This document shows, one piece after another, positions 3,300-37,557 of a stretch of 64,000 nt of DNA. The stretch's first letter is position 1. Each line of letters begins with the position of its first letter. The stretch is from Chitinophagales bacterium (GTDB lineage Bacteria > Bacteroidota > Bacteroidia > Chitinophagales > CAIOSU01), in NCBI GenBank assembly GCA_018401955.1, contig JAGYJT010000006.1:10351-74350 (forward strand). Direction: 5' to 3'. The notes beneath the pieces were generated by a model. The model saw only the letters and a program-made list of their open reading frames with translations. It was not told the DNA's origin and ran no database searches. The position numbers and the translations under genes are program-made.

Positions 3300-4928
3300 A
3301 TGGCGAATGCTATTTTTCGTGTGCCGAAGGCGGTAAATGAACCTGTAAAAAACTATGCACCGGGCTCACCGGAGCGGACTGAATTGAAGGCGGCTTTAAA
3401 GGAACTAAAGGGCCAAGAGCTTGATATACCGATGGTTATTGGTGGTAAGGAAATCCGTACCAACAACAAGGTTGCCATACACCCCCCACACGAGCTATCG
3501 CATACCTTGGGGCATTTCCATCATGGCGATGCGCAGCATGTAAAAGACGCTATTGACGCGGCTTTAGCGGCCAAAGACGAATGGGAAAACACCCCTTGGG
3601 AGCAGCGCGCGGCCATCTTTTTAAAGGCTGCCGATTTGTTGGCGGGCAAGTACCGCGCCGTTACCAATGCGGCTACCATGCTGGGCCAATCTAAAAACGT
3701 ATATCAAGCTGAGATTGATGCGGTTTGTGAGTTGATTGACTTCTATCGCTTTAACGTGGAATATGCTACGCAAATGTACAGCGAGCAACCATACTCGCCG
3801 CCAGGGCAATGGAACCGCTTGGAGTTCCGTCCGCTGGAGGGGTTTGTGTTTGCCGTTACACCGTTCAACTTTACCTCAATAGGTGCCAACCTGCCCACGG
3901 CGCCGGCTTTGATGGGCAATACCGTGGTTTGGAAACCATCAGAAACCCAGATTTATTCTGCTTGGTTTACGATGATGGTGCTAAAAGAAGCTGGCCTGCC
4001 CGATGGCGTAATCAATATTATCTATACCGATGGCCCGGTTGCGGGCAATGTGGTATTTGAGCACCGCGATTTTGCTGGAATCCATTTTACGGGTTCTACC
4101 AAAACGTTTAATTACATGTGGAAGACCATTGGCGAAAATATGGACAAATACCGCAGCTACCCACGCATAGTAGGGGAGACGGGCGGTAAAGACTTTGTAA
4201 TTGCCCACCCAAGTGCCGACCCAGTAGCAGTTTCGGTGGCTTTAGCCCGTGGCGCTTTTGAGTACCAAGGGCAGAAGTGCTCGGCCGCATCGCGTGCTTA
4301 CATTCCTAAAAGCCTTTGGCCGCAGGTTAAAGAGCGCTTGGTAGCTGACGTGAAGAGCTTTAAAATGGGCACGGTGGAGCGATTTGATAACTTCATTAAT
4401 GCCGTTATCGATGAAAAGTCGTTTGATAAACTCGCCAAATATATTGACCAAGCGAAAGCCGATGGGCAGGAGATAATAGTGGGCGGCAATTACGATAAAT
4501 CGAAAGGGTACTTTATTGAGCCTACCGTAATTGTAGCCAACGACCCTAAGTACACGACCATGTGCGAGGAGCTTTTTGGCCCAGTGCTTACCCTATATGT
4601 GTACGATGACGATAAGTGGGAAGAAACCTTAGAGTTGGTTGACAGCACCTCGCCTTATGCCCTTACAGGTGCCGTTTTCTCGCAAGACCGCTATGCCCTT
4701 GAGGTAGCCAACCGCAAGCTGAAACACGCTGCCGGTAACTATTACATCAACGATAAGCCTACTGGGGCTGTTGTTGGCCAGCAACCGTTTGGCGGTGCGC
4801 GCGGCTCGGGCACTAACGATAAGGCAGGTTCCATAATCAACCTATATCGTTGGGTTTCGGCGCGTACCATGAAAGAGACCCTTTCACCTGCCCTTGACTA
4901 TCGATATCCGTTTTTGGCTGACGAATAG
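3300..4928 (+). CDS. pruA: L-glutamate gamma-semialdehyde (P5C) dehydrogenase
   Basis: NEPVKNYAPGSPER, PFNFT, FTGST, GETGGKDF, FEYQGQKCSA, KPTGAVVGQQPFGG. Confidence 0.96.
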   Translation: MANAIFRVPKAVNEPVKNYAPGSPERTELKAALKELKGQELDIPMVIGGKEIRTNNKVAIHPPHELSHTLGHFHHGDAQHVKDAIDAALAAKDEWENTPWEQRAAIFLKAADLLAGKYRAVTNAATMLGQSKNVYQAEIDAVCELIDFYRFNVEYATQMYSEQPYSPPGQWNRLEFRPLEGFVFAVTPFNFTSIGANLPTAPALMGNTVVWKPSETQIYSAWFTMMVLKEAGLPDGVINIIYTDGPVAGNVVFEHRDFAGIHFTGSTKTFNYMWKTIGENMDKYRSYPRIVGETGGKDFVIAHPSADPVAVSVALARGAFEYQGQKCSAASRAYIPKSLWPQVKERLVADVKSFKMGTVERFDNFINAVIDEKSFDKLAKYIDQAKADGQEIIVGGNYDKSKGYFIEPTVIVANDPKYTTMCEELFGPVLTLYVYDDDKWEETLELVDSTSPYALTGAVFSQDRYALEVANRKLKHAAGNYYINDKPTGAVVGQQPFGGARGSGTNDKAGSIINLYRWVSARTMKETLSPALDYRYPFLADE

Positions 4929-5024
4929 TGCAACTTGCTATTTTGTAGTGTCAAATCAATCATATTTCCATACAATAAGTTATTTTTACGCTTACACAAT
5001 ACCAGCTAACCCATAATTACCACT

Positions 5025-8000
5025 ATGCGCAAGGGAACTTTACTTAGCATTATTTTCAGTATCACTTTTTTAGTGTTTTTGGCACCTCAGGCCTTTAACA
5101 ATGCCAGCCAACCGCCAGAGGGGCACACCGGTGCACCTGGCGAGTTAAATTGCTCGGCATCAGGCTGCCACGTGGGCACTCCGGTATCCAACAGGAGTCT
5201 TTTTCGTATGGATATAGTAAGCCGCCCGCCTACATACGATACGGCGGTAACCTACAATCTATTTGTAAACAACAGTGCTGGCACTGCAGCCTATGGTTTT
5301 CAGGTTACTGCCGTTGATGCAAATGGTTTTCCGGCGGGTAACTTTATATTAAACAGTACCACTACCACATCGTTGGTTGCGGGTGCTAATGGCAGGCAAT
5401 ATGTTGGTCACAACAATGCCAACTCTACCAATGCTTGGGCGTTTAAATGGAAGCCAACGCGCTACGTAGGCCCGGTAACGTTTTATATTGCGGGTTTAGG
5501 TGCCAATAACGATGGTTCGGTAACTGGCGACCAAACTTACCTAGATACTTTGCGCTTTGTGGGGCAAGGCCAACCAGCTAACCTTAACGCAGATTTTACC
5601 ATTAGTAATACTACTGTTTGTGTTGGCGATGCAATAACATACACTAATACTAGCACCGGTACTGTAACCACCTACAACTGGACTTTTGGTGCTGGAGCTA
5701 ATCCGGCAGATGCTGCTACGGTTGGCCCACATAGTGTTACTTACAGCACAACCGGCACTAAAACTATCAGTCTAACGGTAGGAGATGGCTTGCTTACCGA
5801 CACAGAAACAAAAACAGTGACAGTAGTTTCTGCACCTGTGGCTAATGCTGGTAACGATACCACCATTTGTGCCGGTGGTACTGCAACGCTTCGTGCAACT
5901 GGCGGCACTATCTATGCTTGGAGCAATGGTGCTGGCTCAGGTGCTAGCGTAACCGTTAGTCCACTTACCACCACTACTTATACCGTAACCGCTACATCGG
6001 GCTCATGCACGGCTACTGATGAGGTAATTGTAACCGTTAGCCCTGGCCCTGCTGCCGATGCTGGCGTAAATGATACCGTTTGCCTTGGCGAACCTGCTAC
6101 CCTTACCGCCTCAGGTGGGGTTGGTTATCAATGGAATACTACCCAAACTACTGCCACTATTACGGCAATAATACCTGCTGCTGGTACCTATACGGCTGTA
6201 GTTACCGTAACCGATGCACAAGGCTGCACAGGTGTTGACTCTGCCCAAGTAATTGTAAACCCACTACCTAACGTAACCGTTGCCGATGTTACTACCTGTG
6301 GCACGGGCACGGCGACATTAGATGCTGGTGCTGGTTTTGCATCTTATGTATGGAGTAATGCTGATGTTACGCAAACAACCGATGTAACCACTACTGGAAG
6401 CTATAGTGTAACCGTTACCGATGCCAATGGCTGCGAAAATGCCGATACGGCCACCGCTACTATTCTTTCTAGTTTGGTAGTTACGCTTAACGATACCAGC
6501 TTTTGCCCAGGCGGTAGTGTAACTCTAGATGCTGGCTACCCAGGTGCTACTTATTTGTGGAGCGATAACTCAACAGACCAAACCCTTGTAGTTACCTCAG
6601 CTGGCACTTATAGCGTAACCGTTACCGATGGTAGCTGCAGTGGTAGCGAAGATGCAGTAGTAAGTATTGCTACTTTGCCTTCGGTGGGCGCGGGTGCTGA
6701 TGTTATTATTTGCGCTGGTGATGTTGCCAATATTGGTAATCCGGATAGTGTAGATGTGGTTATCGTTCAATCAGAAAATTTTAACGGTTGTGGTCTTCCA
6801 ACAGGTTGGCAGGCAAACATTCTGGCTGGTGTTGATAATTGGCTGTTCACAGTACCTAGTTATGGCGGCGGCGGTATTAACGGCTCTTGTATGGCGCATT
6901 TTAACGATGACGACGCTGGCAGCGGCCAAGTAAACAGAGTAGAACTTTTGTCTCCAAGTTTTGATGCTACCCCTTACAGTGTTTTATTGGTAAACCTAGA
7001 TGTTCACTTTAGGGTATCAACAAGTAGCCAATTTAATATTCAAGTTTGGGATGGTACTGCATACCAAGATTTAGCCGTTTACAATTCAACTATCAACGGT
7101 AACACTTGGGGTAGCTTTCAAAACGAGACGTTTGACTTGACTCCTTACCTAAACGCTAACCTTCACCTTCGTTTCTTTTACGATGATTTGGGTGGCTACG
7201 AGTGGTGGGCTGGTATAGATAACTTCCTTGTTGGTGGTATTCCAGCGGGTCTATATTCTTGGTCGCCAACCACAGGGCTTGCTGATCCAAATTCACCATT
7301 AACCACCGCACAACCTACAACCACTACAAGCTATGTATTGTCGGCAACTGTAAATGGCTGCACCAAAACTGATACGGTGCTGGTTACGGTTAACCAATCG
7401 CCAACGGTTTCGTTTACCGGTATTGCCACCACTTATTGCGCAGACGTGGACGTGGATTATTCATTAACAGGCACTCCTACTGGAGGTACATTCAGCGGTC
7501 CTGGCGTTACAGGCAGCAGTTTTAATCCGTCGGATGCTGGTGCTGGCGTGCACAATGTGGTTTATGAATATTTTGATGCCGCACTTAACTGCACAGGCAG
7601 AGACACCATAGTTGTTACGGTCAATCCTATTCCAAATGCGGTTATCACCAGTGCTAACACTTTTGTTTGTATTGATGAGCCTGCATTTACCTTAACAGCA
7701 ACCCCTGCGGGTGGTACTTTTAGTGGTCCTGGGGTAAGCAGCGGCACCTTTAATGCAAGTATTGCTGGCGCTGGTGCTCATCTTGTTTCCTACGTTTACA
7801 CTAGCCCAGCAGGATGCTCGGATACTGCTACTATTATTTACAATGTTGTTGACTTTACACCAAGCTTTAGTGGTTTGGGTAGTGGTTATTGTGCATCTAC
7901 TAGCACCACGGTTGCTTTAACTGGAAGCCCTGCTGGCGGTACTTTCAGTGGCCCTGGCATAGTGGGTAATGATTTCGACCCCGCATTGTCGGGTGGTGGT

Positions 8001-27268: not shown

Positions 27269-28136
27269 GAACATCGTAATTATTGGTGCCGGTAATATGG
27301 CCTGGCATCTTGGGCACCAGTTTATTAAAGCTGGGCATAAAGTAGTGGAAGTATACAACCGTGGCAAAATTGCCGGTGAGGCATTGGCCGAAGAACTGGA
27401 TGCTGCATTTGCCAGTAAGCCCGAAGAGATTACCCGCACCGCCGACATTTACATTGTGGCAGTAAGCGACCATGGTATAGATGATATTATCCTTACCCTA
27501 CAATTGGATAAACAAATTGTGGCCCACACCAGTGGCGCCGTGCCTATGACGGGTATGGAGCGCATCAGCCTTAACCATGGTATCTTCTATTCTTTGCAAA
27601 CCCTTACCAAGGGTACCATGGTTGATTTTAGCGAGGTGCCCATTTTTATCGAAGGCTCAAGTAAAAAGGTAGAAGAAGAGCTAACCGCTCTGGCCAAAAC
27701 CATCAGCAAAAGCGCGCATAAACTGGATAGCCACAAGCGCCGGGCATTGCACGTGGCGGCGGTTTTTGCCAACAACTTTACCAATTACCTATACCATATC
27801 TCTAGCGAGATTTTGCGTAAAGAGGACATTGATTTTAAGCTGCTATTCCCTTTGATGGAAGAGACCATGGCGAAGCTTAAAACCCATACCCCACTCGAAG
27901 TACAAACCGGCCCCGCTAAGCGTGGTGACTACCGCACCATTGGCGAGCACATGAACTACCTGCAAGGCCATGATGCCTATAAGGAGATTTATCTGGTACT
28001 CTCGGAAGGGATAATGAGCTTATACAAGCCAGCTGCTGAAGGCCTAATAGGCGAGGAGTATTGGGGTAAAGACTTCGAGTTTGATGAGCAAGTTGACGAC
28101 TACGACGGCCTACCGCTGGAAGATGATGAAGATTGA
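27258..28136 (+). CDS. Rossmann-fold / DUF2520 oxidoreductase-like protein
   Basis: IIGAGN, HTSGA, LHVAAVFANNF, QTGPAKRGD. Confidence 0.88.
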   Translation: MQHKNIVIIGAGNMAWHLGHQFIKAGHKVVEVYNRGKIAGEALAEELDAAFASKPEEITRTADIYIVAVSDHGIDDIILTLQLDKQIVAHTSGAVPMTGMERISLNHGIFYSLQTLTKGTMVDFSEVPIFIEGSSKKVEEELTALAKTISKSAHKLDSHKRRALHVAAVFANNFTNYLYHISSEILRKEDIDFKLLFPLMEETMAKLKTHTPLEVQTGPAKRGDYRTIGEHMNYLQGHDAYKEIYLVLSEGIMSLYKPAAEGLIGEEYWGKDFEFDEQVDDYDGLPLEDDED

Positions 28137-28324
28137 TTAATGTGCTGATGTGCTAATGTACCAATGTGCTAATTGTGATGGACATTATGGGCCCAACTAT
28201 CTATCATTAGTAATTTCTTTGTGTCTTTTGCGTTTTTACTTTGCGCACGTTGTGGTTAAAAACATAACTCGTAACCCGTAACTCGCAACTATCTTGTTTT
28301 GTATCTTGTGTCTCAAACAATCGC

Positions 28325-28870
28325 ATGCAAGGCCCTACCCACATACTCGTTGGCATTAGCCTAGAGAAGATATTCTCCAAAAAACGCATGCAGCCCGTGG
28401 TGAGGTTTGTGGTGATAGCCGTAATAGCCTTGTTTCTGCACAGCGTATTCGATCGTATTGCCCGCATTACCTACCATCCGCCCGATGCCTGCTACACCGA
28501 CCCATTTTGGGTAGGCTACCATTTAATAGTGTACAGCGCCACCATATACATGCTGGTAAAGTATTGGCGCAAATACCCCATCGGCATTACGTTCTCTATC
28601 CTTCCTGATTTTGATTGGGTGATATTACACGGCAGCAAAGCCATTTTGGGAGAGCACCCCAGTTGGTACCAAACCGGCCACATACACCAGTTTCTGCACA
28701 ACATTACCGACGCTATACCGCCCTTTTCGCTCCTCCACCAATACCTCCCCGACCGCACCGACGACAAACTAGGTTTCCTCTGGGAAGTGCTCATCGTACT
28801 CAGTCTTATTTTGCTAATCCGTTGGCTAGATAAACGAGCGGCCAAGTTGGATAAAAACGCTGAAATATAA
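28325..28870 (+). CDS. Membrane protein, possibly metal-dependent hydrolase (YdjM-like)
   Basis: N-terminal THILVG, LHSVFD, LPDFD, His-rich; hydrophobic helices. Confidence 0.6.
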   Translation: MQGPTHILVGISLEKIFSKKRMQPVVRFVVIAVIALFLHSVFDRIARITYHPPDACYTDPFWVGYHLIVYSATIYMLVKYWRKYPIGITFSILPDFDWVILHGSKAILGEHPSWYQTGHIHQFLHNITDAIPPFSLLHQYLPDRTDDKLGFLWEVLIVLSLILLIRWLDKRAAKLDKNAEI

Positions 28871-29049
28871 ACTAGCATGTCATCCTGAGCGTAGTCGAAG
28901 GGTGCGTGCGTGGGCCGTTGGGTTGAGCGTTACATTCAAATTACCGTTACTCTGTAGCAAAGTGACAGTCTTGCTCCCCTCCTTTGCATGGCGCTGAGCG
29001 ATTGGCCAAGGAGGGGTTGGGGGTGGTCAGCACATAATACCAGTGAAAA

Positions 29050-29292
29050 TCAAGAAATAGAATTCCGCACCCGCTGCGTATAATTGCGCATAGCAGTGCG
29101 CACATCAGTGCCGTTATCGGTCATATCCTTTAGCACGGCTATGGCCGCAATGGCGTGGGTAAGCTGCTCGCCCTCATCGCTGCCTTCAATTTCAATTGTA
29201 GGGGTTTCCTCGTTCAGTATCGCCTCCTCGGCAGCAGTAAGTTGCTCAAGGGTATAGGTCTCAACCAATTGTTTTATTACCGGTAGTTTCAT
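29050..29292 (-). CDS. Conserved Bacteroidota small protein coupled to thioredoxin (DUF6952-like)
   Basis: MKLPVIK...GSDEGEQLTH...RVRNSIS; begins 1 nt after the thioredoxin stop. Confidence 0.8.
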   Translation of the reverse strand: MKLPVIKQLVETYTLEQLTAAEEAILNEETPTIEIEGSDEGEQLTHAIAAIAVLKDMTDNGTDVRTAMRNYTQRVRNSIS

Positions 29293-29293
29293 C

Positions 29294-29611
29294 TTAGTTC
29301 AATTTATCAATCATTCCGGTTACATAATCCTCTTTGCTGGTGCTGGCACCTTCTACCAACTCACCGTTTTTAAACACGGCAATAAACGGCAAGCTATCCA
29401 CATTAGCCAACTTGCGGGCATTGGGGCTCTTTTCGGCATTCACTTCCAAGAAGGCCACGCCAGCATAACGCTCATCAGCGCTCAAGCGCTTAAACTTCGG
29501 CGTAAACAACCGGCAGCTACCGCACCAGTCGGCATAGTACTTCACAATTACTTTCTCGTTATCCTTCAACAACGCCTCAAAATCGGCATCGGTAGCAGTT
29601 ATTACACTCAT
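29294..29611 (-). CDS. Thioredoxin family protein
   Basis: YADWCGSC active site; TATTTTTG -7 box at 29671-29678. Confidence 0.92.
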   Translation of the reverse strand: MSVITATDADFEALLKDNEKVIVKYYADWCGSCRLFTPKFKRLSADERYAGVAFLEVNAEKSPNARKLANVDSLPFIAVFKNGELVEGASTSKEDYVTGMIDKLN

Positions 29612-29913
29612 GGTATGGTTTACAAGTTTGTTCAGTAAAAAAGCATAACGCCCACGGGCATTACAAGGTTCAAAAATAGGTAGAAATACGAAAAGAGGAG
29701 CGTGAAAAAGTTAACCGCAAAGTGCGCAAAGAAAGGACCGCAACGAACGCAAAGAAAAAGTTTGCCATCTTACTTCCCTCCTAAAAAGGAGGGGTAGGGG
29801 AGGTGTAATTCGTCGCGCTAAACTCTGATAATCTGAACCTCTTAATTGCGAGTAATTCCACACAACACCTACCAATCAGCACATTGGTACATCAGCAAAT
29901 CAGCACATTGAGG

Positions 29914-31239
29914 TTATTCCCCCACATCAAAATTCGCCTTCAGCGCCTGCTCAATCCTCCTGCTATTATTCATGTTTTGGTAAAATTCCACCACCATCGG
30001 GCGCACAAAAATGTCGCGAGGCGTAAGCGGACGACGCAGCACCAGCCCTTCCAGCGTAGTGCAGCGGCTCAACGCCACGTATACCTGCCCAGCGGCAAAA
30101 GCCCCATTGCCAAGGTCGATTATCACTTTATGGAACGTAAGGCCTTGGCTTTTGTGTATGGTTATGCCCCACGCCAACTTCACCGGGAACTGCGTAAACG
30201 TGCCCACAATCTGCTCTTTGATGGCGCTCTTTAGGTTGTCGTAGTCGTAGCGGGTGTTGTCCCACGTTACGGTGGTTACCTTGTGCTCTTTGCCCTCAAT
30301 CTCAATCAGCAGTTCTTCGTTGGTTATAGCCAGCACCTTACCTATACTGCCGTTTACCCACTTCTTCTCCAAGTCGTTCTTCACCATCATCACCTGCGAG
30401 CCCACCTTTAGCTTTAGCTCCATTTCGGTAGGCATCAGTTCCGGCGGGAAAATGCCCGTACTCTTCCCCTTTAACGTATGTTCCTCGGTGTGCAAGCTCG
30501 CCAGTTTAAAGTCGTTGGTTTGTTGGGCTGCTTGGCGCGTGGCACATAGCGTTATGTACATCTCATCATTCACGGGCGACCCAATGGCGCGGCGATTCAT
30601 TTGCTCCAGCGCGTCCTCGTCCATCTCGTTATTGCGGATGCGGTTCAGCAGGTTCACAAAGCGCTCGTCTTGCTGGCGGTACACCGTGGTCAGTTCAATG
30701 TTCACGGGGTCTAGCTCTTTGTAGGCCGCACTGCTAAAAAAGAAAGGCGTATCGTAATGCTCGCGAAGCAGCGGCCAGTCGTTTTGGGTTACCACCGGCT
30801 CCAACTGGAACAAATCGCCCACCAGTAGCACCTGCACCCCACCGAAAGGCGCCCTAGGGTTGTCGCGCACCGCGCGCAGGGTGCTATCAATGGCATCCAT
30901 CAAGTCGGCGCGCACCATGCTCACCTCGTCAATTATCAGCAGGTCCATTTTCTGCATAATCTTTGCCTTGTTGCCCCGTATGCGCTTATGGTCTAGGCGG
31001 TTGTCGCCCGGTGGCAAAGGGCCAAATGGCAACTGGAAAAACGAGTGTATCGTTGCCCCCTTTACGTTCAGCGCCGCCACGCCCGTAGGCGCCACCAACA
31101 CCACACGCTTGGCCGTGCTCAGGGCCACATCGCGTATAAAAGTACTCTTACCCGTGCCCGCCTTGCCTGTAAGGAAAAGCGACCCCACCGTTTGGTCAAT
31201 TATCTGCCTGGCCTGCTGCTGTAGCGTATTTTCTTGCAT
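29914..31239 (-). CDS. PIF1/RecD-like SF1B DNA helicase
   Basis: LTGKAGTGKS, APTGVAA, IDEVSM, GDLFQLEPV, YRQ, QFPVKLAWGITIHKSQG, GQVYVALSR. Confidence 0.93.
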   Translation of the reverse strand: MQENTLQQQARQIIDQTVGSLFLTGKAGTGKSTFIRDVALSTAKRVVLVAPTGVAALNVKGATIHSFFQLPFGPLPPGDNRLDHKRIRGNKAKIMQKMDLLIIDEVSMVRADLMDAIDSTLRAVRDNPRAPFGGVQVLLVGDLFQLEPVVTQNDWPLLREHYDTPFFFSSAAYKELDPVNIELTTVYRQQDERFVNLLNRIRNNEMDEDALEQMNRRAIGSPVNDEMYITLCATRQAAQQTNDFKLASLHTEEHTLKGKSTGIFPPELMPTEMELKLKVGSQVMMVKNDLEKKWVNGSIGKVLAITNEELLIEIEGKEHKVTTVTWDNTRYDYDNLKSAIKEQIVGTFTQFPVKLAWGITIHKSQGLTFHKVIIDLGNGAFAAGQVYVALSRCTTLEGLVLRRPLTPRDIFVRPMVVEFYQNMNNSRRIEQALKANFDVGE

Positions 31240-31325
31240 AGTGGTAAAGTTACGGGTTATTGGTTAATCGGTTGATTGGTTACTTGTTGATTGGTTGATT
31301 GGCTTTCCATTGACCCGCGAAGCGA

Positions 31326-31973
31326 GTTTTGTCCTGCAGGAAGTGAGGTTTGGCGGGGGGGGTGAACCTTGATTTGCTTGATTACACGATTAGAAAAGGA
31401 TTTTTTTCGTGTTGCGGGTAATCCTTTTCCAATCTACAAATCCTTTATTAAATCAAGGTTCTTACCATTTGGGTTTTGTCGTCCAGGAATGTATATTTTA
31501 TGCGGGTTGTAGGTCTGGTTACTTGCTTGTCTCGCCTTGGGCGAGGGTGGATTGGTTATTGGTTTATTTGTTTTTTTGCCATGGACTATCGATCATGGAC
31601 CATGGACCCGCGCAGCCCAGTTTTGTCGTCCAGGAATCGTTATTTCATGAGGGTTGTGTTACGTGCTGACCACCCCCAACCCCTCCTTTTCCTATCGCTC
31701 ACATGCCATTCGAAGGAGGGGAGCTGTCAAGTGCTCGACTTAGCTCGGCCTTGTTACTTGGCTTTTTTGCCATGGACCATGGACCATTGACTGCGAAGCA
31801 TAGTTTTGTCGTCCACGAATGTATATTTTATGCGGGTTGTGGGGCTAGTTACTGGTCGAAATACGGTAGCTCCCCTCCTTCGCATGGCCATTTTTGCGCG
31901 CTTGCGAAAGGAGGGGCTGGGGGTGGTTAGCGCAGCCCAGTTTTGTCGTGCAGGAAGTGAGTTGTGGCGCAGG
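31326..31973. repeat. Array of five degenerate direct repeats GTTTTGTCGTCCAGGAA(TGTATATTTTATGCGGGTTGT) with ~100-145 nt spacers
   Basis: Starts at 31326, 31473, 31620, 31803, 31940 (periods 147, 147, 183, 137). Confidence 0.85.
31364..31461. repeat. ~98-bp MITE-like element, copy 1
   Basis: TIR GAACCTTGATTT/AAATCAAGGTTC; internal IR AAAAGGATT/AATCCTTTT. Confidence 0.8.
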
Positions 31974-32248
31974 TTTGCCGCGCCTTGGGTAAGCGTGGTT
32001 ACTGTAAATATAAACCGCTGTAAATGAATGGTTTGTGTGGTTGTTGGTTTTTGTATTGGGCTGGGGGAGAGGGAGTTGTGGGGCCGCTTATGGCGGAAAA
32101 TGCAAGCGGATGCTTGCTGCATGGTACACACATGCAAATGTTTGCGCGAGATAGGGGTGAAGGAGTAGCGAAAAACATGAGTTGAAGAACTTGAGATGTT
32201 ATTGAGGGTTTTAAGAGCCTGTTTTAAATTGGCATTTAGTATTTTTAT

Positions 32249-34975
32249 ATGGTAAAATGTAGATGCTTTATGGTATACCTTCTAATTGATACTTGTATTT
32301 GGAAAAAATTAGTTGATAAGGTTCAATTTAATCAAAAGCTATATACCCTGCAAAGTTGGGTAAACTCACGTCAAGTGAAGCTTCTATGTCCTACGATTTT
32401 AAAGACCGAGTGGAAAAAGCATAGAGATATTGAAATAAGGAACATTAATAAGAGGATTGCTGCAAGACGAAAGCAAATAGAAACTGAACAAAATTATGCT
32501 TCTCACATGGGTGCGTTAAAAGATGACCTTGGTTTTGCTTTATTGAAAGGTCAAATAGATGTGATTGATGAAATGTTTGAAAATAGCATTGAAATCCAAT
32601 GGACTGAGGCCGTGAGTGTACTAGGTTTTAATGCACTTAAAAACAAAAAGGCTCCGTTTTTTGAAAGACAAAATAGTGCAGCTGATGCCGAAATGATTTT
32701 CAGTACTTTATTGTTTTTAAAGCAAGATGGAGTTAATGATTTTTATTTTGTGACAGACAATCACAATGACTTTGCAGATATTAAAGATGGGGTTTATTAT
32801 CTGCACCCTGATATCTCTGGCTTATTTCCGACTATCAATATTATTTATATGGATAGTTATGATAATTTTAATAGTCATCTAATTTGCAATAAAAACTTTA
32901 CTGAGAAGATAATTATTAGGGAGAGCATAGACGAAGTTGATTTTAAGTTAAATATAAATGAACATTTAGGAGTAAAGGGTCAAATAGCTGCCTTGTTAAA
33001 ACATTTTAAGGATGTCAATTTTATTCCGTTACCATATATTATTAATAACTACCCATTTGTTAGTAATGAAGCTGGTTACAGTCATTACAGTGGCTTTACT
33101 TTAAAAACTAGAAATAAAGATTTGTTTGAAGGCATAAACGAATTGATCTCTTCAAAACAAACTAATACAGAATCGTTGAGCATAGTAGAAAGGATAGGAT
33201 CTAATTTGATTTATTTCATAGCCAATGATTCAAATGACACACTTGATTTATGCCCTTCAAATCATAATGAGGACTTTTCTATTAAGGGTAAAATAGAACA
33301 CTTTAAACTATTAGAGGCATATAGGGAGTTGCAAGAATGTAAAGACTTTGACCATCCCGATTGGGAAGCATTGGCATATTGTTTTTTTTATTTTGGTGAA
33401 TTTGATAAAGCAGGAAAGCTCTTCAGTAACTCATTGGCGAATCATAAACCTTCTGAACGAAGCAGCTTTAGCTATTCTATAATAGCGTCTAATTTGTTAT
33501 TGCTTAAAAATGTAAGGGATAGTAAAGTTTCTTTAGAATTGGTTTCCACCTTAGACGATAAATTGAAGTCAATTTACCCGTATACGGATAAGTTATTTAT
33601 GGAATATTTAAAGGGATATGATTACTATCACCATACTTTAAACTCCATGACTGCTGTCTTAAAGAAAATAACTGAGCATTTAGAAAGATATCTTCAGAAT
33701 GGTTGGAGTTACAATAACTCTCTAAGAGAAATCATTTGCTATTTCGCTCAATTGGATTTACTCACAAGTAAGAACAACATAATTTTTCACCATTACTCAG
33801 AAATGACCGCTGCTTCTTCTATACTGTTTGAGGCTCTTTTTATCTGCCATTCTTATGGTACTAAAGGGTTAAGGTTACTTGAAGCTTTTGACGATTATTT
33901 TTTGAATAGAATGGTACATTTGGGAAATCCCAAAGAGCTTTTAAGATTTGCGAAAAAATACGGTTTGAATGAAATTACATACTATAGACAGGATAAAAAT
34001 TATTTTATTCGGGACGTGAATAGTTTTTTTGATGATTTTGAAAAGAACTATATCGATATACATGAGATGTCTAAATCAAACCATGTACTCAACGACGTCC
34101 ACAACAGGATGTTTGACAATATCCTTGTTGTGCTATCACTGTTAGATATTGACCAAGATTTTGTACCTGTTATCACTAAAAAAATGGTTTCTTTTATAAG
34201 GGGAAACTCATTGCTCTATCTTACTTCTTATGATTACTTATCAGAATTTGTCAGTAAAAAGGGCAAGTTTATGAATTCTGAAAACCTTACTTCACTTCTC
34301 GAGTTATACTTTGAGGATAGGAACTTGGGACAATTTACTTATCACTCATTGTTATGCCATATAATTGAACAGTTAAATGTGAAGATTACAATTGATTTGT
34401 TAAATTATTTTAATGTCACCAACGCAATGCAAATTGGTCTAATTAGGAACGAGCGAATTAGACTGTTAATGATAGCAAGTAGGGTTATAAGTGATAAAAC
34501 AATTACCAGTAAACTTAGCGCAACTGTAGAGGAAACAGATGAACTTGAATTAATTTATTGGGCCTTAATGTACGACATACCTGTGTCAAAGACAAAAGAG
34601 GAGCATTATTTTAGGCTGGCATTGGAAAGACAAATTAACAGATATGCCCATTCGGATGATTTCTATGGACGATTAAATTCTTTGGGAAATGAGATGATAA
34701 ATATCGCCTTTATGAAGGGATATGAACTGAATTCTGAGAGATTTCAACCGCTTGCGCAATTATCAGAATATTTTAATTGGCTATTAAATATAGGAACTTA
34801 CGATTATTCTAAGTTTCAATTTGAATGGCTGTTCTATTACTTTAACGTGAATTACAAGAAAGAGTTTAGTAAGCATCCACAATTGAAACTCAAAGTTTTT
34901 GAGATTTTGGCAAATAATAGAAATATAAAAGGTGCTGAAACAGCATTTGGTATGTTTAAGGATATCGAAAATTAA
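32249..34975 (+). CDS. PIN-domain (DUF4935-like) protein with long helical/TPR C-terminal region resembling DSR2; putative anti-phage protein
   Basis: LLIDTCIW, KTEW, AADAEMI, FVTDNHNDF; TPR-like LAYCFFYFGEFDKAGKLF; C-terminal YFNWLL..YDYSKFQFEWL; strongly AT-rich; start may be the Met at 32270. Confidence 0.8.
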   Translation: MVKCRCFMVYLLIDTCIWKKLVDKVQFNQKLYTLQSWVNSRQVKLLCPTILKTEWKKHRDIEIRNINKRIAARRKQIETEQNYASHMGALKDDLGFALLKGQIDVIDEMFENSIEIQWTEAVSVLGFNALKNKKAPFFERQNSAADAEMIFSTLLFLKQDGVNDFYFVTDNHNDFADIKDGVYYLHPDISGLFPTINIIYMDSYDNFNSHLICNKNFTEKIIIRESIDEVDFKLNINEHLGVKGQIAALLKHFKDVNFIPLPYIINNYPFVSNEAGYSHYSGFTLKTRNKDLFEGINELISSKQTNTESLSIVERIGSNLIYFIANDSNDTLDLCPSNHNEDFSIKGKIEHFKLLEAYRELQECKDFDHPDWEALAYCFFYFGEFDKAGKLFSNSLANHKPSERSSFSYSIIASNLLLLKNVRDSKVSLELVSTLDDKLKSIYPYTDKLFMEYLKGYDYYHHTLNSMTAVLKKITEHLERYLQNGWSYNNSLREIICYFAQLDLLTSKNNIIFHHYSEMTAASSILFEALFICHSYGTKGLRLLEAFDDYFLNRMVHLGNPKELLRFAKKYGLNEITYYRQDKNYFIRDVNSFFDDFEKNYIDIHEMSKSNHVLNDVHNRMFDNILVVLSLLDIDQDFVPVITKKMVSFIRGNSLLYLTSYDYLSEFVSKKGKFMNSENLTSLLELYFEDRNLGQFTYHSLLCHIIEQLNVKITIDLLNYFNVTNAMQIGLIRNERIRLLMIASRVISDKTITSKLSATVEETDELELIYWALMYDIPVSKTKEEHYFRLALERQINRYAHSDDFYGRLNSLGNEMINIAFMKGYELNSERFQPLAQLSEYFNWLLNIGTYDYSKFQFEWLFYYFNVNYKKEFSKHPQLKLKVFEILANNRNIKGAETAFGMFKDIEN

Positions 34976-34980
34976 TCTCT

Positions 34981-35078
34981 CTCTCGCGGAAGTTCCTCTT
35001 CCGTGAGAGGGAACTTAGTTCCCACGCATTAAAAGTTCGAACCAAGTTCCAACGGCACGAAAGTAACTTTCACGCTAG
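34981..35078. repeat. Degenerate REP-like hairpins downstream of the PIN gene
   Basis: CTCTCGCGGAAG..CTTCCGTGAGAG; GGGAACT.AGTTCCC; GAAAGTAACTTTC. Confidence 0.55.
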
Positions 35079-35100
35079 TATAACTCAGACTGCCTTATTT

Positions 35101-36279
35101 CTACACCACCGCCACAAACAACCTATTCTCCTTGCCCTGCAGCGCATATAGCGAGGCGAAGGCGACTTCGGCAATGAGGTACTTTGCGCGGGGAGAGGTG
35201 TATTGCTCTATCACTTCTTTAATGTCCAAAGGTTCCAGTTCGGTGTCGTGGGTGTAGCGTATGTATAGGCGCAGCGTGAAGTCGGTGTGCAGTTGGTGCA
35301 GGCCGTGGCCGTTGGCTGCTATGTTTTGGTGCAGCTTTTTGTACTCGTAGCGGTATTGGTGGCTTAGTGCCGCCACATCGCTTAGCACGGCCGCGCCGGT
35401 AGGGTAGCTGCCTGCCCCCTTGCCCACCAGCAGTTGCTTGCCCGAAAATGCCCCATCTATCTCCACGGCGTTGTATTCGTTGTCGATGTTGATGAGGTTG
35501 CTCTCGGTGCCCACAAAGCGGGGCAGCACGTATGCTTGCAGTTGGTTGCCGTTGCGGGCGGCGTAGGCCACCAGCTTAATGCGCTGACCTTTGAGGGCGG
35601 CATGTTCAATATCAAATGCCGAAATGTTTTGTATGCCCAGGTTGAGCACTTCTTCGGGCTTGAAAATTACGCCAAAGGCATGCACCACCAGCAGCACCAG
35701 TTTGTATTTCGGGTCGAAGCCTGCTACATCGAGCCACGGGTCTATTTCGGCAAAGCCGAGCTCTTGGGCTTGTGCCAGGGCGGTAGCATAGTCCAGCCCG
35801 TCCTTATCCATGCGGGTGAGGATGTAGTTGCTGCTGCCATTGATGATGCCGCTGATGCTGTTAAGCGACTCGGTATCGTAGTACTCCTCCAAGTTGCGGA
35901 TGATGGGGATGCTGCCCGCGCAAGCACCCTCGTATAACAACGCCACGCTAAATTTTTGCTGCAATTGGAAGAGGGTGCTGAAGTGCTCGGCCAGCAGTTT
36001 TTTATTGGCTGATACTACGTGCAGCCCGCGCTGTATGGCCGTGCGCACAATATCGAGGGCATCTTCGGCATTGTCTACCAGTTCTACAATGGCCTGTATG
36101 TCGTTGCGGCCCAGTATCTCTAGGCTGTCAAACGAGAAATGGTCGAGGGCGATTTTGCGCGGTTTGTGGCGGTTTTTTACGCCAATTTTTTGGATGCCGG
36201 CCTTAAAGCCGTGGCTTTGCCCAAGGGCATCATAGAGTCCCTGGCCCACGCATCCAAATCCGAAAAGTGCTATCTTCAT
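35101..36279 (-). CDS. hom: Homoserine dehydrogenase
   Basis: GFGCVG, VVSANK, YEGACAGSIPII, GIINGSSNYIL, AQELGFAE, GKGAG. Confidence 0.93.
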   Translation of the reverse strand: MKIALFGFGCVGQGLYDALGQSHGFKAGIQKIGVKNRHKPRKIALDHFSFDSLEILGRNDIQAIVELVDNAEDALDIVRTAIQRGLHVVSANKKLLAEHFSTLFQLQQKFSVALLYEGACAGSIPIIRNLEEYYDTESLNSISGIINGSSNYILTRMDKDGLDYATALAQAQELGFAEIDPWLDVAGFDPKYKLVLLVVHAFGVIFKPEEVLNLGIQNISAFDIEHAALKGQRIKLVAYAARNGNQLQAYVLPRFVGTESNLINIDNEYNAVEIDGAFSGKQLLVGKGAGSYPTGAAVLSDVAALSHQYRYEYKKLHQNIAANGHGLHQLHTDFTLRLYIRYTHDTELEPLDIKEVIEQYTSPRAKYLIAEVAFASLYALQGKENRLFVAVV

Positions 36280-36495
36280 TTTGGTTGATTGGTTACTGGT
36301 TACTGGTTGATTGGTGTTGTTTCGTCCATGGTCGATTGTCCATGGTCCACGGTGATTTTCTTTGCGTTCGTTGCGATTTTATCGTTGCGCACGTTGCGGT
36401 TAAAGCACATAATATGTATGAATCGCCTCGTCTAAGCCGAGACAAGCTATCGTGTGCAAAGGAATTATGCAAAGGCCGCTACGTGTTGATTAGTT

Positions 36496-37557
36496 TCAAT
36501 CGTATTTCGTACCTCGTAAATCGTAAATCGGCACATCTTGATACTCGGTAACAAACTCCTCCAGCAACCCACTCAAGGCTTCAAACTCCAATAAAAAGCC
36601 ATCATGCCCATATATGGACGTGATGCTTTTGTGGATGCCGTTTTGAACGTTATCTGCAATAAACGCTTGCTCGTGGGGCGGAAACAACAAATCGCTGGTA
36701 ATGCTTACTGCCAACAATGGGGTAGTGATGGTGGCCAATGTTTCGGTTAACTCACCGCCTCGTCCTCGGCTTATGTTATGGCTATCCATGGCCTTGCTTA
36801 ATGCATAGTAGCTAAAGGCATTGAACCGTTTGGCGAGCTTTTCGCCTTGGTAGCGTTGGTAGCTGCTGGCTTTATAACCTTCAATTTTACCAGCATCGTC
36901 AAGTTGCGTTAAGTGGTAGGTGTCGTATGAGCGATAGGAAAGCATGGCAATGGAGCGCGCTATTTTAAGGCCGTTTAAGCCCGCTTCGGCATTGCTGTTT
37001 TTCCAGGTAGGGTCTTGTTCAATGGCTAGGCGCTGGCTCTCATTAAAAGCAACGCCCCACGGTGAGTGCCTGGCGCTTGTGGCAATTACTGCGGCTTGAT
37101 TAAAAACACCCGGTTCGCGCACGAGCCACTCCAACAATTGGTGCCCGCCCAATGAGCCCGCAATGCCCAAGTGTATGTGCTCGATGCCCAAATGCTGGCG
37201 CAGCAACACATGTGCCTCCACCATATCCTTTACCGTTACCAAAGGGAAACTATGATAGTATGGTTCAAAGGTTTCGGGGTTGATGCTCAGCGGCCCAGTG
37301 GTACCATAGCACGAGCCAAGTATGTTGGCGCAAACGATGAAGTACTTTTGCGGGTCGATGAACTTGCCTTCGCCCACCAAGCCATCCCACCAATCGGCGG
37401 CATCGGCATTGGCAGTAAGGGCGTGGCAAATCCATACTACATTGTCTTTAGCTGGGCTAAGAGTGCCGTAGGTATGGTAAACCACTTCAGGCCGGAGCAG
37501 CGTTTCACCGCTCTCCAGCCTAAGGGTATGGGGTATTTTAAACTTGTGTTCAGCCAT
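36496..37557 (-). CDS. metX: Homoserine O-acetyltransferase
   Basis: ICHALT, NILGSCYGTTGP, GSLGG nucleophile, SDLLFP, YGHDGFL. Confidence 0.93.
   Translation of the reverse strand: MAEHKFKIPHTLRLESGETLLRPEVVYHTYGTLSPAKDNVVWICHALTANADAADWWDGLVGEGKFIDPQKYFIVCANILGSCYGTTGPLSINPETFEPYYHSFPLVTVKDMVEAHVLLRQHLGIEHIHLGIAGSLGGHQLLEWLVREPGVFNQAAVIATSARHSPWGVAFNESQRLAIEQDPTWKNSNAEAGLNGLKIARSIAMLSYRSYDTYHLTQLDDAGKIEGYKASSYQRYQGEKLAKRFNAFSYYALSKAMDSHNISRGRGGELTETLATITTPLLAVSITSDLLFPPHEQAFIADNVQNGIHKSITSIYGHDGFLLEFEALSGLLEEFVTEYQDVPIYDLRGTKYD

Follow-up and report, generated by a model that had tools for sequence, protein, structure and literature searches.

The gene at positions 32249–34975 (+) of a window on a contig from a Chitinophagales bacterium (JAGYJT010000006.1) encodes a PIN nuclease domain that is followed by a long body resembling the sensor part of DSR2, an anti-phage protein of Bacillus subtilis. 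The window, i.e., the whole stretch of DNA that was analyzed, is 64,000 nt. A PIN head on a DSR2-like body is very probably an undescribed architecture, and with it goes a large unannotated modular family. No published description of this combination was found, in keeping with the first-pass annotation of this DNA, which knew of none; supplementary tables and subscription journals lay outside the search, and the architecture may go under another name. The window protein is probably a sensor-effector directed against phages or mobile elements. The gene is a single long frame of 908 codons with zero internal stops, and residue numbering here starts at 32249. The coding sequence and its parts are as follows.

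32270–34975, + strand: PIN-DSR2-like coding sequence (probable), 901 amino acids (aa); the longest open reading frame (ORF), from 32249, is 908 aa.
32270–32914, + strand: PIN_12 nuclease domain (formerly DUF4935), aa 8–222, from Pfam PF16289, residue conservation and the model.
32960–33718, + strand: equivalent of the DSR2 middle domain, ~aa 238–490 with an approximate end, from the VIA alignment and the DSR2 limits in PMC11850899.
33719–34960, + strand: equivalent of the DSR2 C-terminal alpha-solenoid (HEAT-like) sensor, ~aa 491–904 with an approximate start, from the profile, Foldseek and VIA.
34769–34831, + strand: C-terminal signature YFNWLLNIGTYDYSKFQFEW, aa 841–860/861, the most conserved stretch in the family, which aligns with DSR2 ~940–958.

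The body (aa ~238–904) is almost certainly homologous to the middle and C-terminal domains of DSR2, as judged from profile comparison and from the model. The link requires a family profile or a structure, because library searches with the single protein gave nothing useful. There were 0 matches in PADLOC and 0 in NCBIfam, and the best PHROGs match had an expectation value (E) of 0.63. A protein-atlas search with the body reached a best score of 0.82, which is below the meaningful level, and a phmmer search of PDB found only a TPR stretch (aa 362–411 vs IFT56, E 0.003). The family profile is based on an alignment of 119 sequences (A1). It matches DSR2 chains in PDB with E values of 3.7e-12 (C-terminal fragment 8ygo) and 1.5e-9 (full length), and its positions 368–935 cover DSR2 421–1001. 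Weak TPR matches aside (SRP72, E 0.009), DSR2 alone is found by this profile at E 1e-9. A separate profile, made from five members that have a different N-terminus (alignment A2), matches 8ygo at E 2e-4.

Structural comparison gives the same result. The AlphaFold model has a mean predicted local distance difference test (pLDDT) score of 89.5 and a predicted template modeling (pTM) score of 0.83, with 830 of the 908 residues at pLDDT >=70. When the model is compared with PDB by Foldseek, ranks 1–47 are all DSR2 (best E 3.2e-9), and the target-normalized TM-score is 0.65–0.67 for chains holding only the DSR2 C-terminal part. This is the Foldseek check that the first-pass annotation had called for, and the resemblance it supposed is borne out. 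With VIA-align, model residues 238–904 superimpose on DSR2 300–1005 with a Z of 25.5 and a root mean square deviation of 5.1 Å over 597 residues. The identity to DSR2 is 10–13% in structural alignments.

These scores could also be viewed as those of a common solenoid fold, in which case the protein would be a housekeeping RNA-processing PIN protein on a generic helical-repeat scaffold, as are eukaryotic PIN-repeat proteins. Helical repeat proteins often score middling with one another, and karyopherins and CRM1, the best unrelated ones, reach Z 8–8.7 against the model (Z <=8.7). The DSR2 superposition is far above these values, however, and the profile narrows to DSR2. The body is moreover present in only 4 of 401 sampled genomes of the phylum, its GC (guanine plus cytosine) content is foreign and its TIR and nuclease heads are exchangeable, as described below. 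A housekeeping protein is thus an extremely improbable explanation, and homology to DSR2 is retained here.

The domains of DSR2 are SIR2 (1–298), middle (299–547) and HEAT-like C-terminal (548–1005), according to passages of PMC11850899. The junction in the window protein falls at model residues 235–238 vs DSR2 297–304, where SIR2 ends. The entire non-catalytic part of DSR2 is matched, so that PIN takes the place of SIR2 with the domain boundary unchanged. A swap of this kind had been proposed in the first-pass annotation, and it is substantiated by the junction and by repeated head changes in the family. SIR2 was not found at the N-terminus with Pfam, NCBIfam or PADLOC, and the structural match begins only at DSR2 residue ~298–304, past the SIR2 domain with its catalytic N133/H171. 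The middle-domain equivalent contains a mixed alpha/beta linker part, a TPR-like helix pair (aa ~362–411) and a helical bundle. The long helical region read earlier from the sequence is present in the model; the TPR-like segment read with it has weak matches only, those to IFT56 and SRP72 given above.

The C-terminal signature runs from Y841 to W860 within YFNWLLNIGTYDYSKFQFEWL, and these two residues are invariant across the 119 alignment rows. The family sequence YYdWLlDmdnFDYskFdpeW is aligned by HMMER to DSR2 ~940–958, which contains NFDYKKFIPSW. A likeness to a DSR2 ending 'FDYxKFxxxWL' had been proposed in the first-pass annotation, and the alignment places it at this site. Two DSR2 structure papers say nothing about the motif residues (F949, Y951, F954, W958 and others).

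The head of the protein matches Pfam PF16289 (PIN_12) at aa 12–175 with an E value of 1.2e-12 and 49 bits vs a gathering cut-off of 32, and the match covers profile positions 2–172 of 172. The acidic pattern noticed at first pass (IDT, E, D, TDNxxDF) is complete. Its motifs are located at I13-D14-T15, E54, D146 and T169-D-N-H-N-D174-F175, so that the acidic residues D14, E54, D146 and D174 plus N171 are present. Among 102 PIN-bearing alignment rows, E54 is found in 102/102 and D146 in 102/102, D14 in 90/102 (10 rows have a gap) and N171 in 97/102; position 174 has D in 74 rows and E in a further 22. In the AlphaFold model the domain has a long two-helix insert at aa 49–112 (helices 49–79 and 85–112). 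Comparison of model aa 6–222 with archaeal PIN proteins by VIA-align gives Z values of 9.7 (1y82), 9.6 (1v96) and 8.0 (1v8p).

Passages of Matelska et al. 2017 (PMC5499597) assign PIN_12/DUF4935 to the VapC group among PIN-like nucleases and label its function as unknown; DUF4935 proteins are described there as ~350 aa, encoded by stand-alone genes and having a long helical insert after strand 2. The window protein is similar in the helical insert after strand 2, in the acidic residues that are kept and in having a gene outside of an operon. It differs in its length of 900 aa and in that PIN_12 heads a DSR2-like body. No defense link is proposed in the literature seen on DUF4935, including these passages of PMC5499597. 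We infer that the PIN domain is a nuclease, and RNA would be a likelier substrate than others because PIN_12 belongs to the VapC group. Proteins P0076, P0101, P0129 and P0146 (390–437 aa) have the PIN domain and nothing of the body beyond its initial alpha/beta linker, and some of these may be fragments. The linker subdomain of DSR2 may be the counterpart of the alpha/beta region at the C-terminus of the classic 350-aa DUF4935 proteins.

The protein belongs to a large family. An exhaustive HMMER search yields 595 cluster representatives with E <=1e-3, and for 97 the E value is <=1e-30; most homologues are 900–950 aa and align end-to-end with 20–28% identity. A second homologue search gave 5 proteins, with the single protein or with A1. 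The domain census covers the 150 best of the 595 representatives; the other 445, including any SIR2-headed members, lie outside it. The stored set is 155 family proteins (the window protein is counted twice), and the N-terminus is complete in 148. The head is PIN in 130 of these 148. It is a DUF4365 cluster in 8 (with a Pfam match in 6/8), TIR_2 in 4 (one below the Pfam cut-off) and SMEK_N in 1, and a further cluster of 5 members is without a Pfam match. The members of this last cluster (P0080, P0088, P0123, P0131 and P0136, alignment A2) have in common an N-terminal domain of ~195 aa that matches nothing in Pfam or PADLOC. Its invariant residues include G-x-D ... E ... I-Q-C-K, which, in an unverified reading of our own, look like a restriction-endonuclease-like (PD-(D/E)xK) site.

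A tree of the body alone was made quickly with FastTree (119 rows, 695 columns), and its support values are local ones only. Head type changes 11 times on this tree, where the possible minimum is 4, and 0/200 shuffles are as low. Head types are therefore clustered yet have changed repeatedly. Some well-supported sister pairs have different heads, e.g., PIN and SMEK rows (support 97) and a PIN row next to two TIR rows (support 98). From the head census and the tree, effector swapping is a general property of the PIN-DSR2-like family. The abstract of PMC10810196 lists DUF4365 and SMEK as nuclease domains in the APAZ partners of short Argonautes, and TIR-APAZ and SIR2-APAZ are the NADase versions according to abstracts. 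The heads in the family are thus those usual in defense systems.

The gene has a GC content of 0.318 vs 0.450 in the remaining window. In 280 other 2.7-kb segments of the window the minimum is 0.392, the mean 0.447 and the standard deviation 0.022. The composition of the gene is foreign, and the earlier remark that it is more AT-rich than its neighbors is correct. A decaying or inactive gene, which was acquired by transfer and is not yet degraded, is a further explanation to consider. The window protein is on a very long branch with 21–26% identity to all relatives, and the gene is a single copy in an incomplete genome (completeness 79%), both of which are consistent with decay. However, the 908-codon frame is intact, the four acidic PIN residues and the invariant Y841 and W860 are kept, and the model is confident along its whole length. 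Decay is accordingly quite improbable, and an intact sensor-effector is the preferred reading.

Comparison with a genome of the same genus (G404) outlines a cassette.

32160–34976, no strand: low-GC cargo cassette, from blastn/alignment to G404 and from GC.

To the left of the cargo, similarity to G404 is gradually lost over ~32080–32160; to the right, the two genomes are again alike from 34977, 2 nt past the stop codon. Upstream in the window are thioredoxin and PIF1-like helicase genes, and downstream are a convergent homoserine dehydrogenase gene and methionine-pathway genes. The flanks are kept in G404 (thioredoxin-PIF1-repeats ... homoserine dehydrogenase-hydrolase) with protein identities of 88–94% and DNA identities of 86–88%. 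The slot in G404 (L039; G404:C54, 3246–5746) has cargo of the same size, consisting of two genes (423 and 410 codons, 31–36% GC) that overlap. These genes match Dazbog DzbA (E 2e-37) and DzbB (E 1.4e-9) in PADLOC, and a tblastn search with the PIN protein finds nothing in the G404 slot. The slot between the PIF1-like helicase and homoserine dehydrogenase genes is a small defense hotspot with exchangeable low-GC cargo, because conserved flanks hold different low-GC cargo, Dazbog in the case of G404. There are four other genomes of the genus. The PIF1 and homoserine dehydrogenase genes of G402 are on different contigs with other neighbors, and contigs of G401, G403 and G405 break off at the slot or close to it. 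There is no tRNA in the window, no Rfam match in 28000–37000 and no integrase seen at the slot, which therefore leaves cargo exchange without a recognizable integrative element to explain it.

Two other features flank the cassette.

31247–31970, no strand: intergenic repeat array left of the slot and outside the gene, a genome-wide repeat.
34990–35016, no strand: hairpin AAGTTCC...GGAACTT between the convergent PIN and homoserine dehydrogenase genes, read from the sequence and conserved in G404.

The array has five copies 137–183 nt apart with the core AGTTTTGTCGTSCAGGAA. This core has 37 matches in the genome at <=2 mismatches vs 0 for the reversed control, is often in small arrays on other contigs and is partly conserved in G404. 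It may be an intergenic repeat similar to repetitive extragenic palindromic (REP) elements. On the right, the flank at 34977–35100 has repeated GGAACTT/AAGTTCC words and is near identical in G404; the hairpin may represent a shared terminator or a recombination site. The PIF1-like helicase gene (29914–31239, –; Pfam PIF1 E 5.5e-33) looks resident and not part of the cargo, because its GC is normal and it is 94% identical in G404.

The start of the coding sequence is probably ATG 32270. The database copy (P0002) and nearly all homologues start at M8, which corresponds to this ATG, and MVYLLIDT agrees with the family start consensus MxxxLIDT. A promoter-like match is also present.

32229–32258, + strand: sigma-70-like promoter match TTGGCA-18-TAAAAT, 10/12, a consensus match only, overlapping the first ATG.

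Since it overlaps the first ATG, this site would favor ATG 32270 if it is used. The number of sigma-70-like sites in the region is not above that in shuffles, the scan being limited to that promoter type.

In a phylum sample of 401 genomes, 9 have a match at E <=1e-10. The body is matched in the four genomes mentioned above (the source genome included), and the other 5 have stand-alone PIN_12 ORFs. Such stand-alone ORFs, of ~300–440 aa, are found in these 5 genomes and on 8 plasmids from other phyla. A motif scan of species-level genomes with alignment A3 and the pattern WLLD[ML]xxFDY, which favors loci with the exact motif, gave 17 confirmed loci, 16 of them in Bacteroidota (Chitinophagaceae, Flavobacteriales, Sphingobacteriaceae and Cytophagales). 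The sole locus outside Bacteroidota (L029, 88–384, Acetatifactor sp., Bacillota) is a C-terminal fragment of 94 residues at a contig end with 33% identity, and it may belong to the C-terminus of a classic DSR2-type protein.

The neighbors of the homologues were surveyed over four ORFs per side at 16 usable loci, which gave 115 ORFs; these are tallied by ORF and not by locus. PADLOC identifies type IIG restriction-modification (2 members), type I and type II methyltransferases, QatB, QatC, QatD, PDC-S02, PDC-S39, PDC-M11B and DrmMI. Pfam identifies HEPN_AbiV (2), AbiH, Mrr_cat (2), HNH_5 (3) and Eco57I, as well as the mobile-element genes RteC and DUF3987. At locus L013, an Mrr_cat restriction endonuclease (4850–5707, E 1.6e-10) is directly downstream of the PIN-DSR2-like homologue P0041. 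No partner gene recurs among the 115 neighbors of the 16 loci, and a single-gene system therefore fits. The first-pass annotation had suggested that defense neighborhoods be looked for, and defense genes are indeed present near these loci, as an association. A defense role draws its support from context only: these neighbors and Dazbog in the G404 slot.

A related possibility is that the same architecture guards against plasmids or conjugative elements, or serves as an addiction or competition module, instead of sensing a phage structural protein. RteC, DUF3987 and HTH_17, the last of which we take to be an excisionase-like domain, are among the neighbors of the homologues. The loop by which DSR2 binds the tail tube protein is not conserved, and no close relative of the gene is present in 50,697 phage records. 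Against this, the G404 slot holds Dazbog, which is anti-phage according to PADLOC, and 72,556 plasmids have no full-length copy and only the 8 PIN-only matches. The one relative of the body that has been characterized is activated by sensing the tail tube protein of a phage (passages of PMC11087589). Protection from mobile elements or an addiction module is therefore unlikely, and the sensing of a phage protein remains the favored function.

A possible mechanism can be outlined from DSR2. According to passages of PMC11087589, DSR2 is an autoinhibited tetramer with a SIR2 core, in which the middle and C-terminal domains bind one monomeric tail tube protein each. With the tail tube protein bound, the assembly becomes more compact and the NADase site is opened, and DSAD1 competes for an overlapping site; L495, L497 and L498 are needed for Tube binding. 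The window protein, which has a VapC-group PIN domain in place of the SIR2 NADase, is probably a single-protein anti-phage sensor-effector. It would be held inactive in the uninfected cell. Upon infection, a protein made by the phage would bind to the helical solenoid sensor, and the binding would cause a change in conformation or assembly that releases the PIN nuclease. The PIN domain would then cut cellular and/or phage nucleic acid, most likely RNA, and the cleavage would bring the production of phage to a halt, with the cell itself probably sacrificed. Inferred elements of this scheme are the defense phenotype, what triggers it, the nucleic acid that is cut, the oligomeric state and the abortive outcome of infection.

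Several findings weigh against this reading. The stretch with L495/L497/L498 of DSR2 aligns to an insert state and has no counterpart in the family profile, and therefore the trigger of DSR2 is not simply transferable; the loop insert hints at a trigger or binding mode that differs from that of DSR2. DSR2 is assembled and regulated through its SIR2 domains (passages of PMC11087589). The SIR2-SIR2 contacts of the tetramer cannot exist in a PIN-headed protein. One dimer prediction, with residues 1–500 as two copies, gave a score of 0.01, which speaks neither for nor against a dimer. The homology to DSR2 is distant, since in 11 family proteins PADLOC-DB 2.0.0 has no match to the body, even with E values allowed up to 0.1–1. 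The window protein (P0001) itself has 1.95 changes per column on its branch, and its exact place on the tree is unsure because of this length. The gene stands alone among housekeeping genes in the window with no adjoining defense island. The defense neighborhood of the homologues is an association and not an enrichment, because ORF tallies do not give locus numbers and the survey is without matched controls.

The variety of heads has implications for how the body functions. TIR heads need assembly, and the SIR2 head of DSR2 needs a loosened assembly (passages of PMC10973363). TIR-type and SIR2-type logic on one body is a mechanistic puzzle. Heads of opposite activation logic are on one scaffold, and the scaffold would therefore have to transmit ligand binding in a general way. 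The Tube-binding loop of DSR2 is absent from the family profile, and therefore a different phage protein or surface would probably be recognized. The chances are about even that the DSR2 body, instead of being a sirtuin accessory, represents an effector-independent receptor family for phage proteins, free of a nucleoside triphosphatase (NTPase) and probably directed to that different protein or surface. The same even odds apply to the extent of such a family, i.e., a branch of 595 representatives that PADLOC does not detect, with named members from Bacteroidota and at least five heads (PIN, TIR, DUF4365, SMEK and an unnamed nuclease-like domain).

DSR2 belongs to a small number of defense proteins for which atomic detail is available on how they directly recognize a phage protein, and to our knowledge no head other than SIR2 has so far been seen on it. 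Nuclease and TIR heads in a large sister family with the same body would make it clear that the DSR2 sensor is a reusable module, as are the sensors of Avs or of APAZ-Argonaute systems. The family would be a natural experiment in which one scaffold controls enzymes of opposite activation logic. It provides a first functional hypothesis for PIN_12/DUF4935 and adds hundreds of unannotated defense candidates in Bacteroidota, where the coverage of defense screens is poor. The genus has a defense slot, from the PIF1-like helicase to homoserine dehydrogenase, that swaps low-GC cargo.

Antiviral STAND (Avs) proteins have a helical-repeat sensor of phage proteins and swappable N-terminal effectors in one protein (passages of PMC11850899). 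The window protein is similar to Avs by analogy of logic only, in that a putative sensor and an exchangeable N-terminal effector are in one protein. Unlike Avs, it has no NTPase, STAND or P-loop match in Pfam, NCBIfam or PADLOC, and none is visible in the model. The family also resembles the effector-APAZ partners of short Argonautes (SPARTA, SPARSA, SPARDA), whose heads, as far as abstracts and passages describe them, include TIR, DUF4365 and SMEK, and also SIR2, the head found in DSR2. PIN is not named among the APAZ-linked heads in the short-Argonaute abstracts. The sensors are unrelated; APAZ-Argonaute systems have guide-dependent recognition of nucleic acid, whereas the sensor here is a protein-binding solenoid. 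The closest known system is DSR2 (PDB 8WKX, 8WKS, 8WY8, 8K98 and others). As in DSR2, there is one large protein of ~900–1000 aa with a homologous middle and alpha-solenoid body, the C-terminal signature FDYxKF...W and an N-terminal effector at the same boundary. Homologues of DSR2 with other heads are not mentioned in the accessible parts of the DSR2 literature. DSR2 is from Bacillota and has a SIR2 NADase that depletes NAD+ (nicotinamide adenine dinucleotide), whereas the named PIN-DSR2-like members are from Bacteroidota and have a PIN head from which cleavage of nucleic acid would be expected. Strictly speaking, the window protein lacks the SIR2 domain that would make it a DSR2, and is instead a remote homologue of the DSR2 sensor whose head has been exchanged.

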